A program made the translations under genes and the position numbers. From IMG/VR virus record IMGVR_UViG_3300021961_000025: DNA of 64,000 nucleotides, one strand, 5' to 3'. Below are positions 2,976 through 14,852 of this stretch, in pieces. This DNA is from a virus. The stretch's first letter is position 1, and every line of letters starts with the position of its first letter. Below the pieces are notes generated by a model that saw only the letters and a list, made by a program, of their open reading frames with translations, had not been told where the DNA came from and did no database searches.

Positions 2976-3275
2976 ATGAGACCAAATAATAGAAACTTTC
3001 GAGGTGGAAACAAATTCGGCAACAAACATTTCGACAACAAGAGAAATAGCCGACCAGAAAGACCGAGAGAGCAAGGACTCATGGTTTATGTTGAAGATAA
3101 TAACATTGAAAAAGCGATCCGTAAATTAAGACGTAAAGTAGATCGTTCAGGTTTGATGCGTGATATTAGAGAAAAACAATATTATTCTAAACCTAGCGAA
3201 ATACGTAAAGAGGCAAAGAAACAAGCCATCAAACGTTTTAAGAAAAACCAAAAACTTAGAGAAGAATTGAGATAA
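2976..3275 (+). CDS. rpsU: Ribosomal protein bS21 with N-terminal extension
   Basis: VYVEDNNIEKAIRKLRRKVDRSGLMRDIREKQYYSKPSEIRK is the bS21 signature; SD AGGAG. Confidence 0.92.
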   Translation: MRPNNRNFRGGNKFGNKHFDNKRNSRPERPREQGLMVYVEDNNIEKAIRKLRRKVDRSGLMRDIREKQYYSKPSEIRKEAKKQAIKRFKKNQKLREELR

Positions 3276-3281
3276 GAAATT

Positions 3282-3575
3282 ATGGCAGACAAAGACAAAC
3301 AGGTAGATGTTTCTCAGCTGAAATTCAATAAAGATATGAATCTTGGTAAGAAAGATCCTAAGAAATACTCCCCTACTGCTATTATGCGTCCTAAAACTAG
3401 AACGTATCCTGTTGAAGAAATTTTCTTTGACATTGAGGGAGATCCTGAACACGTCATTATGAAAATTCCTGAAGCGATTGCAGAAGATGCAGATTGGAAA
3501 GAGGGTGATACTATCTCTCTAACCATGTTGCCTGATCGTCAAGGATTTGTAATGAAGAAGATAAAGGTAAAGTAG
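3282..3575 (+). CDS. AbrB/MazE-like swapped-hairpin DNA-binding protein
   Basis: VIMKIPEAIAEDADWKEGDTISL matches the IPxxIxxxxxWxEGDx pattern. Confidence 0.65.
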   Translation: MADKDKQVDVSQLKFNKDMNLGKKDPKKYSPTAIMRPKTRTYPVEEIFFDIEGDPEHVIMKIPEAIAEDADWKEGDTISLTMLPDRQGFVMKKIKVK

Positions 3576-10116: not shown

Positions 10117-12024
10117 CTAAAATGCTCCCACGTATGCTCTACTGCTATTGTATTGACTACGTACAGTAGAATCAGTATTTCTTACAGGGATCGACACAGT
10201 ATTAACTGATGTCGATACATTGTTGTTAGAAGTAGGTGCAACGACTGTATTTACGTTACCACCTCCACCAGCAGATTCATCTCTTGCTGCTGATGTCATT
10301 GCTGAAGCATTAGTAACTATTGTTCCATCGGAATTCATATAGCCACCAGCTTGAACAAATGATGTCATTCTACGCCATGGAGCCTCACCGAGTGCATCCA
10401 TTGCTTTTTCTAATTTGTCTGCGTCAACGTCTGCGAAAGACGCCATTGATAAACCGAGTTGATCTAATCCTGCTGCTGCTGCTTGAATACCTGCACCAGC
10501 TTCACCAATCTTAATTAATTGTTCAACAGGAGTATCCTGTCCGAAAGAAAGTAATTTTGTAACTAGATTACCCAAGCCAGCAAGAACGTTACCTGCAGCA
10601 AACGCAACCATTGATGCACCAATTGCTGTAATACCTGCAGCAACAGCTAATAGATTACCACCATCAAGTTCTCCTAGTCTTTCTAGACCAGTAGTCATTG
10701 AGTTCATACCCTCGCCGATTGCTTGCATTGCTTCGCCGATAATCCAAAGAGCACCACCCATTAAGCCAAGAGCAACTGCACCAGCGATAATTAGTGGAGC
10801 AGCAGTACCTGCGATTGCACCAATAACACCCACACCTGCGAGAGTTAATAAACCTTTAGCAACAGTATCCCATCCGATACCTTCAAATGCTTCAAGTGCT
10901 TTACTTGCTAACCACATTACACCTGTAATTGCTGCAAGTCCTAATGCACCCATTAACATAGATCCAGATGCTTTACCTGCGATAACTCCAATAACAGCAA
11001 GTGCACCTATTGTACCTACACCTTTAGCTAGAGTTTCCCAATCTAGATCTTCAAAATTACTTAATGCTTTACTTACAATCCATAAAGCACCTGCGATACC
11101 GACTAAACCTAATGCACCTTTAAGCAATGATCCAGCCATACCACCGAAACCTTTAATTCCTTCTCCAATTTTACCCATAAGTCCACCACCACCTCCAGCA
11201 GCAGGTTGTGGATTTCCTGGAGTGCCACCTCCAGCAGATGCTCTAGTGTTGGCTTCAATTTTTTCTAGGATGTCATTTTGACTATCCATTTGACGAACAT
11301 TTTCCAAGTGCTGTTCTTTTTCTTCTGCACTTGGTGCTGGACCAACTTCTTCTCCAGTAGCACTATCTACCTTTTCAGGTTGAATAGTTGAGAAGTTTTG
11401 GTCTGTAGCAAACCTTGCACGAATGTCAGTATTACCGACAACTTGTAGCATTTCATCTCTGCTTGCTAAAAGTTTAGAACCTTGTTCTGTACGAGCAATT
11501 TGCTCTTCATTCATCCCAGCATCTTTAAAGTACTGGAGTTCTTTATTTGTTTTAGATAAATTTCTTCTTGCGTCGTAGTTCGCTCCAAAGTCTAAAGCGA
11601 GTTCTTCATTAGATTTGGTCGATCCTAATCTCTTTTGTTGTTCTACGAATTCTGATTTGGCAATTGATTTATTAAAGAGACCACCGAAGTTAAATGCTTT
11701 CATTAAACCTCGTCCTGGATTTTTAATAAAATCACCGAAAGGTTTTACGAATCCTTTAATGCCATCGACCATTCTTGCGATTGGACCACGAATCTCTTGT
11801 ATTCCGTCAGTCAAATCTTTAATCGCAGCAAGAGATTTCTCATCAAACTCGATTTGATCTTTTCTAAGTTTTAACATTTCAATGTTACTTCTTAGAAGTT
11901 TTTCGTCTAAAATCGATGCCTTTGATGCGATCTCTTTTACAGTTGTGGTTTTATTCTGTTCAAGAGCACGTGACTGCTCTAACAGAATAGTACCCATACC
12001 TGCGTTGTTTGGTTCGATAGCCAT
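10117..12024 (-). CDS. Tail tape measure protein (gp29-like position)
   Basis: Helical N-terminus, Gly/Ala-rich amphipathic repeats (W.T.AKG), C-terminal VVAPTSNNN typical of T4-like TMPs; follows gp26/gp51. Confidence 0.72.
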   Translation of the reverse strand: MAIEPNNAGMGTILLEQSRALEQNKTTTVKEIASKASILDEKLLRSNIEMLKLRKDQIEFDEKSLAAIKDLTDGIQEIRGPIARMVDGIKGFVKPFGDFIKNPGRGLMKAFNFGGLFNKSIAKSEFVEQQKRLGSTKSNEELALDFGANYDARRNLSKTNKELQYFKDAGMNEEQIARTEQGSKLLASRDEMLQVVGNTDIRARFATDQNFSTIQPEKVDSATGEEVGPAPSAEEKEQHLENVRQMDSQNDILEKIEANTRASAGGGTPGNPQPAAGGGGGLMGKIGEGIKGFGGMAGSLLKGALGLVGIAGALWIVSKALSNFEDLDWETLAKGVGTIGALAVIGVIAGKASGSMLMGALGLAAITGVMWLASKALEAFEGIGWDTVAKGLLTLAGVGVIGAIAGTAAPLIIAGAVALGLMGGALWIIGEAMQAIGEGMNSMTTGLERLGELDGGNLLAVAAGITAIGASMVAFAAGNVLAGLGNLVTKLLSFGQDTPVEQLIKIGEAGAGIQAAAAGLDQLGLSMASFADVDADKLEKAMDALGEAPWRRMTSFVQAGGYMNSDGTIVTNASAMTSAARDESAGGGGNVNTVVAPTSNNNVSTSVNTVSIPVRNTDSTVRSQYNSSRAYVGAF

Positions 12025-12033
12025 CTAATTACC

Positions 12034-12228
12034 TTATCGTTTTTTCATCTTTTGTTGTTCGTAACGTTGTTTTTCTTCCTCGAGATGTTTGACTAACATA
12101 TGCACATAAATCTCTCTCTCGAAAGGCATCATTTCTTCCACCTCAGTCAACGAATATTTATGATATTGCATCATTGCAAAGTTAGTCTTGTAATGATTCA
12201 TTAAAGACTCGTGGCTGAGGTTAATTAA
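12034..12228 (-). CDS. gp51: gp51-like baseplate hub assembly protein; open -1 frame from 12228, first ATG at 12201; absent from ORF track
   Basis: Manual translation LINLSHESLMNHYKTNFAMMQYHKYSLTEVEEMMPFEREIYVHMLVKHLEEEKQRYEQQKMKKR. Confidence 0.85.
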   Translation of the reverse strand, partial: LINLSHESLMNHYKTNFAMMQYHKYSLTEVEEMMPFEREIYVHMLVKHLEEEKQRYEQQKMKKR

Positions 12229-12962
12229 AAAAAACTTTGTAACCCTTCCAGCTTCGAGACGTTATGATGTTTACATACAGGACAATCGTACTCAACTGTC
12301 TTAGTTAACTTCGGCATAGTGTTGAAAAACTTTTGTAGTTTCGCAAACTGTTCAGAAGTTAAATTCTCTACGAATTGTAACAACTCTTCTTTTGTAGAAT
12401 CTTTAGAGTGGTATACTTCCTCGCCTTTATAAATTTGATCAATACTCTCAGCCATAATGCCGAAAATACTAGCGATCAACTCAGCGTTTTTACCATCTGT
12501 TTGTTTCTGAATACTAGTCAGAGCCTCAACTGATGGATACTTCATTACCACACCTACATCGTCAAACAAACTAATCTTGCTAGTATGTTCTAGATTCTTT
12601 TCTACTGTAATTCCTGTAATGTCGATGCTAACCTTTACTTTTGCTTTATCGTTATCTTTACACGATGGTTGCTGACAGCTAAAGATTAACTCAACTAATT
12701 CTCCTACTGACTTCGCACGAATTTGAGTAAACAAATACTCTAGATCGAACGTAGCTAGTTTTTCTGTATTTACATCCTTATCAATTATGCAATTTGTAAT
12801 TACATTCCTCAGAGTGTTGACCATAACTTTAGGATCTTCTGACTGCTGAGCAATAAGTAATGCTTTTTCATCTTTTACTAGAAAAGGACGGAACTTAACT
12901 TCCTTCTCTAAACTTGGTACAACTACGGTATACGTAGGAGTACTCGAAATAGGCAAAGCCAT
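12225..12962 (-). CDS. gp26: Baseplate hub assembly chaperone gp26
   Basis: MALP...FRPFLVKDEKALLIA, DLEYLFTQIRAKSVGE, FFNTMPKL, CxxC, GLQSFF. Confidence 0.92.
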   Translation of the reverse strand: MALPISSTPTYTVVVPSLEKEVKFRPFLVKDEKALLIAQQSEDPKVMVNTLRNVITNCIIDKDVNTEKLATFDLEYLFTQIRAKSVGELVELIFSCQQPSCKDNDKAKVKVSIDITGITVEKNLEHTSKISLFDDVGVVMKYPSVEALTSIQKQTDGKNAELIASIFGIMAESIDQIYKGEEVYHSKDSTKEELLQFVENLTSEQFAKLQKFFNTMPKLTKTVEYDCPVCKHHNVSKLEGLQSFF

Positions 12963-12965
12963 AAT

Positions 12966-13391
12966 TTATTCTCCTTTTAATTTACCAATCATTTTATTTA
13001 ATTCAGATGTAGATCCAACAAAGATTGCGTTGTTGGTTACACTTCTCGCATCAGATCCCTTGTCTTTTTTATCATCAAAGGATTGTCGTTGCTTATGTAA
13101 TTCCATTAATTGTTGGTTTACATCAGCTAGTTGCTTGATCATATTACCCACCACTTCAAATGCTCTTGGGTGTTCTGATTGTTTTGCAACTTCTAAAGCG
13201 TGAAGTAATGCTTCTTCACCCTTTTCTAGTAGATTGTGTAAATTACCACGACTGTCGTTATAATCACTATCAATCTTATCTAAATTCTTATCAACTGGAG
13301 CCACCTCACGTTTAGGCATTACTTCAATTGGATTCTCTATTGGTTTTTCTAAACCAAATGTTTCACTTAAATTATTATCTATTTTTGTCAT
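12966..13391 (-). CDS. gp16: Terminase small subunit gp16
   Basis: EHPRAFEVVGNMIK and TNNAIFVGSTSEL motifs. Confidence 0.9.
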   Translation of the reverse strand: MTKIDNNLSETFGLEKPIENPIEVMPKREVAPVDKNLDKIDSDYNDSRGNLHNLLEKGEEALLHALEVAKQSEHPRAFEVVGNMIKQLADVNQQLMELHKQRQSFDDKKDKGSDARSVTNNAIFVGSTSELNKMIGKLKGE

Positions 13392-13401
13392 TTTTTATAC
13401 C

Positions 13402-14253
13402 TTATGCACTAACGTCTAGTGGATTCGCTGCTGCCCATTGAGCCATAGGATCAGTTGTTGGTTCTTCTTGCCCCACTGGAGTTGCTGAAGAAATTGGATT
13501 ATTAAATTGGTTTTCTTGCTGTACTGCTAGATTATTAAAACTTTCTTGGTAGTTATCCCATGCATTCATATAATCATTCGGAACAGAAGTTGTCTGTGCA
13601 GTAATTTGTGATGCAACATCGCCAATTGAAGTAGAAAATATTGCTGCTTGTTCTATTTGTTCATTATTAGGTTTTCCGAAGAATGTTGTCGTAAAATATT
13701 TATATTGAATCGTTACGGAAATTTTTAATAGATCACGTGATGTACTATCTAACTGCATTGATGCAACTGTTTTTGGATATGCTTCGTGTAAAGTAATAGC
13801 ATAACGATGTAAATTTTGAACATCATATACGTGAATAGTAATAGGTGCGACATAGTCGTTGTAGTAACTCATGTGTCTTGTATACGGATCTTGAATTACG
13901 TTTAGCCATCCTTCCCAAAATCTACGAACATGCATTTGATTGTCAACAAAAAAAGTAAGAGTTACTGTATCAAACAATTTCTCGTATGGCATTTCACGAT
14001 ATTCGCCAAACGTTCTTGCTTGTGTTGATGCAAAGTTAAGTCCAGGAAGTTGGGCTGAATCACAAAATAAAAATAGATCACGAGTAGTGAAATCTGTATT
14101 AATAACACGACCACGTGATGGAGATCTTACAACTTCTAATGATCGTGGTGGAGTTATAACTACACCAAATCTATTTGCACGTGCTAGTCCTCCAGTTTTT
14201 ACCTTAGAGATAAAATCGGATAAATTTAATACTGGTGCTTCGTTAACTGACAT
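13402..14253 (-). CDS. gp54: Baseplate tail-tube initiator, gp54-like (tube fold)
   Basis: GLARANRF.V.I, CDSAQLPG, YYNDY, L.EAYPKTV; start coupled (TAATG) to the gp2 stop. Confidence 0.7.
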   Translation of the reverse strand: MSVNEAPVLNLSDFISKVKTGGLARANRFGVVITPPRSLEVVRSPSRGRVINTDFTTRDLFLFCDSAQLPGLNFASTQARTFGEYREMPYEKLFDTVTLTFFVDNQMHVRRFWEGWLNVIQDPYTRHMSYYNDYVAPITIHVYDVQNLHRYAITLHEAYPKTVASMQLDSTSRDLLKISVTIQYKYFTTTFFGKPNNEQIEQAAIFSTSIGDVASQITAQTTSVPNDYMNAWDNYQESFNNLAVQQENQFNNPISSATPVGQEEPTTDPMAQWAAANPLDVSA

Positions 14254-14852
14254 TATACTCTCCCAAAACTTTCTGCCCATACTGCTTGTTTGCTAGCACC
14301 TGTAAATCTTTCTACAGGTAACATCATCGCAGTAAACCACTGGCTTGCGTCTACTTCTAAAAATTGACTCTTAACGTGGCTAATTAAATACTTATGAACA
14401 CAAGGTTTGGCTAAAGCAAGTCTACTTGCTGATTTAACAGTTGCCCATTGAAACTTTAATCGAGTTGTTTGATCCATCTTTGTGTTTGTTGAATACGATA
14501 ATAAACGATCTAATAAACGAACACGAAGTATATAAGGCAAGTAATGCATATTTAACCCTATAAAACTATCTGCTGTTCTATCAAAAGGAAATACCAAAGG
14601 GAACTGATCCCAATAAGGAAGATCGTCCTTACCTTTTGCTTCATAAAAGAACATGTATAACTTTCCAGGCATTACACGATTCTTTAATTGTGCGTCTGAG
14701 CCACCTCCTGCTCGCATCAACTTATTAGGTTGAATACGTGCACGATTTAGTTCAACAGCTTGTTTGTTGAACCAACTTTGTGCTTTCTTTGCTATGTTTC
14801 GATCTTGCTGATACTTTGCAAAGACGTCTGATGCTGTTTGTGCTTTTGCCAT
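14253..14852 (-). CDS. gp2: DNA end protector protein gp2
   Basis: PGKLYMFFYEAKGKDDLPYWDQFPLVFP, GLNMHYLP, CVHKYL. Confidence 0.92.
   Translation of the reverse strand: MAKAQTASDVFAKYQQDRNIAKKAQSWFNKQAVELNRARIQPNKLMRAGGGSDAQLKNRVMPGKLYMFFYEAKGKDDLPYWDQFPLVFPFDRTADSFIGLNMHYLPYILRVRLLDRLLSYSTNTKMDQTTRLKFQWATVKSASRLALAKPCVHKYLISHVKSQFLEVDASQWFTAMMLPVERFTGASKQAVWAESFGRV

Follow-up and report, generated by a model that had tools for sequence, protein, structure and literature searches.

Does a single gene of a T4-like myovirus, through a -1 shift close to its stop codon, supply what T4 makes from genes 26 and 51? The question is raised by a locus on the minus strand of a 64,000-nt viral sequence (the window, by which we mean that whole stretch), in which a 245-codon ORF of the gp26 family ends in CAA AGT TTT TTT TAA (sequence and ORF list) and gp51-like sequence continues in the -1 frame. 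The initial annotation of this DNA had proposed that both a gp26 and a gp26-51 fusion are made, by ribosomal or transcriptional slippage on the T-run that meets the stop codon. The features needed to follow the argument are as follows, all on the minus strand:

12225-12962, minus: short form, gp26-family gene (TAC-N type), 245 codons plus the stop TAA at 12225-12227
12228-12234, minus: slippery heptamer T TTT TTT in X XXY YYZ phase, within the T-run 12227-12234
12034-12228, minus: -1 frame extension, 64 codons (12037-12228) plus a stop at 12034-12036
12243-12249, minus: SD-like purine element GGAAGGG, candidate 5' stimulator, 8 nt upstream of the heptamer
12212-12221, minus: 5' arm of a long-range helix, starting 6 nt after the heptamer
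12140-12149, minus: 3' arm of the long-range helix, inside the extension coding sequence
12199-12201, minus: first ATG of the -1 frame, codon 10 after the slip, 24 nt past the gp26 stop
10117-12024, minus: tape-measure-like gene, 635 codons, starting 10 nt after the extension stop

The T-run is 8 nt long (12227-12234), and the heptamer directly abuts the stop codon. From 12261 the -1 frame meets no stop until 12034-12036, and the predicted products are 245 aa for the short form and 245 + 64 = 309 aa after a -1 slip. When checked against the sequence and the ORF list, the gp26 end, the length of the run, the phase of the heptamer, the 64 codons and the two product lengths were all as the initial annotation had given them.

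The short form and the gp51-like extension

The short form matched PF12322 (T4_baseplate) over residues 9-245 with an E-value of 6.9e-62, above the curated cut-off, and phrog_150 with an E-value of 2e-66, bearing out its assignment to the gp26 family. Its start codon has an anti-SD duplex of -8.7 kcal/mol. An AlphaFold2 model of the short form (pLDDT 92.5) was then compared with known structures. Residues 1-87 of the model matched 3FGX (Rbstp2171; Z 8.0, rmsd 3.8 Å over 86 residues) and 2OB9 (HK97 gp13; Z 7.8, rmsd 4.1 Å over 84 residues), both of which are tail assembly chaperones (Pell et al. 2013, as cited in PMC9603447), and the next match had a Z of 4.5. Identity to the two chaperones is only 10-14%, the Foldseek E-value for the same fold comparison is just 0.5, and a Z near 8 counts as borderline in the guidance given with the tool. 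At that borderline level of similarity, the model is consistent with a tail-assembly-chaperone-like fold of the N-terminal domain. The ~155 further residues had no clear structural match. A PDB sequence search returned nothing meaningful, and NCBIfam gave zero matches for the short form, the extension and the tape-measure-like protein.

The part of the gp26-family protein that is not chaperone-like carries four cysteines, C96, C101, C227 and C230 (C-x4-C and C-x2-C), of which C227 and C230 are nearly invariant across the family. Judged by this spacing, the four residues are a probable zinc site. The labels given by JGI to relatives include 'rubrerythrin' and 'ribosomal protein L44E', probably because of the Cys motif.

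The peptide encoded in the -1 frame matched phrog_634 ('baseplate hub assembly catalyst') with an E-value of 2.7e-25, from its residue 2. It also matched positions 236-281 of phrog_150, which are the final 46 positions of that family. Against the T4 proteins, it aligned with residues 204-249 of gp51 (BLASTP E 9e-5), and a profile comparison with the gp51 tail gave a similar result (hhalign E 4.4e-5, probability 69%). The gp51-like character claimed for the peptide is thus upheld. The domain arrangement of the T4 proteins accounts for the double phrog match: T4 gp26 (208 aa) consists of PF12322 alone, and T4 gp51 (249 aa) has PF12322 at residues 1-201 followed by a C-terminal tail. Since gp51 is a gp26-like domain plus a tail, the single gene here would stand for both T4 genes 26 and 51. 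By homology, the short form would be the equivalent of gp26, and the long form made after the shift that of gp51. The gp51-type tail is joined to the PF12322 domain only if the -1 shift happens, and a search of the 64-kb window found neither a second PF12322 gene nor a second gp51-type tail.

The predicted structure of the tail has three helices (pLDDT 87). Helix 1 begins at residue 2 of the extension, upstream of the window's ATG at codon 10, and the nine codons upstream of the ATG at 12201 encode the first half of this predicted helix.

Conservation of the slippery site and the probable route to the long form

To see how the junction is kept, we compared relatives found through protein searches of IMG/VR and metagenomes, through DNA pattern matches and in the records of named phages. 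All 72 of the 72 distinct related junctions combine a long gp26-type ORF with the tail in the -1 frame, and all 72 have NNT TTT TTY in phase, 0-8 codons ahead of the stop; as with every count across these related sequences, the 72 are not phylogenetically independent. The heptamer, the -1 phase and the U-run noticed in the window are conserved across these junctions, well beyond what chance would give. The codon before the two Phe codons varies (AGT, TCT, AAT, GAT, GCT or ACT), so that the residue ahead of the two Phe can be Ser, Asn, Asp, Ala or Thr, but it always ends in T. In four higher-G+C phages (phiM12, PhiW-14, Ps15 and the KVP40-like vibriophage D482), Phe elsewhere in the gene is encoded by 10 TTT versus 33 TTC codons, whereas the heptamer retains TTT.

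The same signature could be followed at the protein level in a library of 1.8 billion proteins. Among the 150 nearest cluster representatives, 136 have FF within the last 14 residues, followed by 0-8 residues. The remaining 14 comprise 12 that end in a similar F-L motif and two that are truncated or divergent. The F-L motif is what a TTT TTG/A variant would encode, and such a variant is seen in Rhizobium phage RL38J1, whose heptamer is TTTTTTG. Other named phages with an in-phase heptamer are the cyanophages RN05-S and S-B43, Sinorhizobium phage phiM12, Delftia phage PhiW-14, Stenotrophomonas phage Ps15, a KVP40-like vibriophage, Cronobacter phage LPCS28 and Aeromonas phage ZPAH1.

In the Ackermannviridae (Menlow, Kuja) and in Vibrio phage K448 the tail is likewise in the -1 frame, with a run that is shorter or broken. 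These lineages may use single-tRNA slippage or reinitiation. The sites in Klebsiella phage Menlow, Vibrio phage Kuja and Vibrio phage K448 read ATT TTC, CTT TTT C or CTT TTC, and in K448 an ATG overlaps the stop.

From this anatomy, a programmed -1 ribosomal frameshift is the probable main route to the long form. The gene at 12225-12962 (minus) would then code for a T4-like myovirus's tail assembly chaperone. For most ribosomes, termination at the UAA would yield the short form of 245 aa, equivalent to T4 gp26. The others, a minority, would slip back one base on U UUU UUU (12228-12234), after which both Phe-tRNAs could re-pair; pausing may be increased by the stop codon that then occupies the A site. 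The slipped ribosomes would read 64 codons in the -1 frame, giving a 309-aa long form with the architecture of gp51, i.e. a PF12322 domain with a helical C-terminal tail. By analogy with lambda gpG and gpGT, we infer that the product of the following tape-measure gene would be coated by both forms, and that the added tail would bring in a further tail or hub component.

Two candidate stimulators flank the heptamer, and together they probably raise the slip rate. Upstream, the GGAAGGG at 12243-12249 has an anti-SD duplex of -6.0 kcal/mol. An SD-like element of the GGAGG or GAAGG type was present ~8 nt upstream in 51/51 distinct junctions scored, with a mean anti-SD duplex of -6.95 kcal/mol at the element compared with -1.21 kcal/mol in the rest of the same genes (median percentile 0.02, n = 51). 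The Glu codon within the element is GAG in 35 cases versus GAA in 18; elsewhere in the genes the ratio is reversed, at 474:1170. The element overlaps a nearly invariant Gly codon, so that protein and RNA constraint are inseparable in these comparisons.

Downstream, the 45 nt that follow the heptamer fold better than shuffled sequences (mean z -1.33, n = 26), whereas the 40 nt upstream show no excess structure (mean z 0.00). The downstream structure begins 4-8 nt after the heptamer. In the window, the fold of 12128-12227 has an energy of -24.9 kcal/mol (z -4.1), and the 10-bp helix 12212-12221 / 12140-12149 was recovered in an RNAalifold consensus of 24 clade members. Covariation in this helix amounts to two compensatory pairs, one of them in the window only (U-A to C-G), a level equalled by 13-16 of 500 shuffles, and there is a C.A mismatch in four sequences, the window included. 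Because both arms lie in coding sequence, RNA-level selection is not cleanly split from protein constraint. Most of the window's clade lacks a compact hairpin in the 45 nt that follow the heptamer, and the long-range helix is seen only in folds of 100-110 nt.

The type of 3' element varies from clade to clade. A marine clade (the L030-L040 group) has a compact G+C-rich hairpin of 6-8 bp (z ~-4) that starts ~4-5 nt after TTTTTTC. In clades L015, L019, L026 and L027, the same region pairs with conserved Pro-Trp-Glu codons ~95 nt downstream.

The -1 frameshift of E. coli dnaX is driven by a heptamer with an SD-like element ~10 nt upstream and a 3' stem-loop. The predicted layout in the window has the same three parts, with the helix beginning 6 nt beyond the heptamer and the SD-like element 8 nt ahead of it. 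It involves another heptamer in another gene, however, and the window's helix encloses ~62 nt rather than forming a compact hairpin; also, the zero-frame stop abuts the heptamer.

The strongest competing explanation is that the shift occurs during transcription. Were the host RNA polymerase to add one U on the 8-T run, the same 309-aa fusion would be made, and this could act alone or alongside ribosomal slippage. Bacterial polymerases do slip on such runs, examples being A or T runs in E. coli, Thermus dnaX and Shigella mxiE, and the 8 T found in the window and in 36 clade contigs are near the known slipping lengths and may permit a degree of polymerase slippage. As the product of either route is identical, conservation of the -1 frame does not discriminate between them. 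The details of the site are more telling. Polymerase stuttering needs a run of ~9 or more, or a shorter one with a 5' hairpin, but 41 of the 72 distinct junctions have just 6 T (TTTTTTC), which is short for a polymerase, and there is no excess of 5' hairpins (the upstream mean z of 0.00 above), which is where nascent-RNA hairpins act. Moreover, the run is always NNT TTT TTY and never NNV TTT TTT, a phase that a polymerase would not need, and both the conserved SD-like element and the 3' structure are of a kind that works on ribosomes. The 6-T junctions in re-pairing phase, the SD-like element and the presence of 3' rather than 5' structure thus favour the ribosome over the polymerase, and we regard transcriptional slippage as unlikely to be the main route, at roughly the level of a serious minority view. 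The initial annotation had left both routes open; the results lean towards the ribosomal one, short of proof. The combination of heptamer, SD-like element and 3' structure makes the family a testable case for ribosomal versus polymerase slippage. Separately, a reading of the T-run as part of an intrinsic terminator was ruled out, there being no upstream hairpin.

Within the window's own clade the site has a form that bears on the mechanism. Most other sampled T4-like lineages have U UUU UUC and then 1-8 further codons before the stop; among the sequences compared, the 8-U run abutting the stop and the long-range 3' helix are specific to the window's clade. Since the stop abuts the 8-U run here, unlike in those other lineages, classical tandem-tRNA slippage might not apply. 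There is some chance, though a small one, that in this clade the amount of long form depends on termination competing with P-site slippage (a 'shifty stop'), or on polymerase stuttering, and it might even be adjusted by translation factors of the phage itself. If so, tail chaperones would have a mechanistic variant that has not been described for them. With programmed ribosomal frameshifting as the preferred explanation, the value of the window lies in confirmation and in this clade-specific variant, with 8 U against the stop.

Coding sequence ahead of the first ATG

A third explanation holds that no fusion is made, and that a separate 55-aa gp51-like peptide is produced from the ATG at 12201, by initiation or by termination-reinitiation. 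An ATG does exist 24 nt after the gp26 stop, database records annotate such small ORFs as genes of their own, and the stop of some distant phages shares bases with an ATG (TGATG or TAATG). The sequence between the slip site and the ATG points the other way. Across 24 distinct sequences of the window's clade, third positions vary in 12 of the 14 codons after the slip, compared with 4/14 for first and 3/14 for second positions, and pairwise comparison of the same codons gave 1120 synonymous versus 415 nonsynonymous differences. By this pattern of substitution, the stretch that separates the slip site from the first ATG evolves as coding sequence. The initial annotation had suspected that gp51-like sequence begins upstream of the first Met; the alignment and the periodicity agree, and the sequence is conserved there.

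The ATG itself is poorly kept. Depending on the member of the window's clade, the -1 frame reaches its first ATG at codon 2, 10, 15 or 20. There is no ATG ahead of the conserved tail core in 25 of the 72 junctions, and none of ATG, GTG or TTG in 17 of the 72. The SD before ATG 12201 is also weak, with an anti-SD duplex of -2.5 kcal/mol versus the -8.7 kcal/mol at the gp26 start, in keeping with the earlier remark that the gp51-like ORF lacks a convincing SD. Taken together, the third-position periodicity, which covers the nine codons that encode half of helix 1, the mobile or absent ATG, the start of the helix upstream of it and the weak SD make independent initiation unlikely. In addition, the T4 gp51 tail works fused to a PF12322 domain. 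We consider separate proteins improbable.

An assembly artefact, in which a true run of 9 T has lost one base and the gene is really continuous, is the least credible explanation: homopolymers are error-prone in some sequencing chemistries, but a pattern scan found 36 independent contigs of this clade in IMG/VR with a run of exactly 8 T and none with 9 T, which excludes an assembly error for practical purposes, its three 7-T matches are unrelated DNA, and every other clade likewise needs a -1 shift, with a long in-frame form in 0 of the 150 nearest cluster representatives. A word search for long in-frame proteins sharing words with the extension found none, which is weak evidence.

Known systems, annotation records and neighbouring genes

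T4 gp26 and gp51 are hub assembly chaperones that are absent from the virion (Leiman et al. 2010, PMC3004832). The proteins of the window belong to the same family (PF12322, phrog_150), the long form having the domain order of gp51 and the short form that of gp26. The genetic arrangement is different. In T4, genes 26 and 51 are separate, as the initial annotation had said, and also divergently transcribed, with no slip site, whereas the window has one gene and a -1 shift. T4 also has genes 27 and 28 between 51 and the tape measure gene 29; in the window, no gene lies between the extension and the tape-measure-like gene. Involvement in baseplate-hub assembly is known from T4 genetics only.

[quoted passage not shown] According to work citing that paper, some T4-like phages have a short gene and a separate long fusion gene, with no frameshift. 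As described there, such phages, like T4, obtain the short/long pair without a frameshift, and the window represents the one-gene, frameshift form. To the extent that the 2022 paper is reflected in the work that cites it, the identity of the gene is already published and not new in kind, and the novelty implied by the initial annotation was too high. Our literature search, which reached PMID 34826709 via citing papers, found no other report.

The lambda slip site is G GGA AAG, compared with U UUU UUY in the window and its relatives. The window resembles lambda gpG/gpGT in its predicted short and long forms, overlapping frames and a heptamer near the end of the short ORF. It also shares the order of chaperone, extension and long tape-measure-like gene, and the N-terminal fold is chaperone-like at the borderline level given above. 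The analogy drawn with lambda G/GT is thus backed by conserved gene order and, at that level, by the fold. The proteins have no sequence similarity, however, and that of the window is about twice as long, with an extra Cys4 domain. A conserved -1 frameshift is a known property of the chaperone genes of long-tailed phages (Levin et al. 1993; Xu, Hendrix and Duda 2004, both as cited in PMC2147016).

Cyanophage and marine vibriophage gp51 proteins were found to be only ~20% of the length of T4 gp51, lacking the first ~200 residues, in an account that mentions no frameshift (Sullivan et al. 2010, PMC3037559). A frameshift would explain these short 'gp51' proteins, the missing 200 residues coming from the upstream gp26 gene. 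T4 would then be the exception, and the one-gene form would be that used by most T4-like lineages.

None of the 13 named phage records inspected has a joined CDS (ribosomal-slippage join). The tail is left unannotated in Cronobacter phage LPCS28 (3169-3333), Aeromonas phage ZPAH1 (3196-3360) and Menlow (3241-3400), and in Synechococcus phage RN05-S (3121-3210) only a 29-aa fragment of it is called. Since several records omit or truncate the extension, annotation pipelines could be corrected.

The gene after the extension was called the tape measure in the initial annotation. This holds in part. The label is drawn from a weak match of the protein (10117-12024) to phrog_4372 (E 5e-8), from its size, from Gly/Ala-rich hydrophobic repeats and from its position; against it, BLASTP detected no similarity to T4 gp29, and there was no Pfam or NCBIfam match. 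A long gene (530-890 codons) follows the extension in 16 of the 20 relatives checked, and its sequence diverges fast: an alignment of seven tape-measure-like proteins had 15-27% identity, too poor for use. The hydrophobic repeats lie at about residues 290-480.

Upstream of the chaperone gene, a small-terminase-like gene is found at 12966-13391 (minus; PF11053 E 5e-10, phrog_445 E 3e-39). It lies between the tail-tube-family and chaperone genes, an unusual spot for a packaging gene, inside a tail/hub block. The tail-tube-family gene (phrog_45, gp54/gp19-like; 13402-14280, minus) and that of the DNA end protector (gp2-like, phrog_429; 14253-14852, minus) overlap by 28 nt. The order gp2, tube-like, (terminase small), chaperone, tape measure is common to phiM12 and KVP40-like phages, minus the terminase insert.
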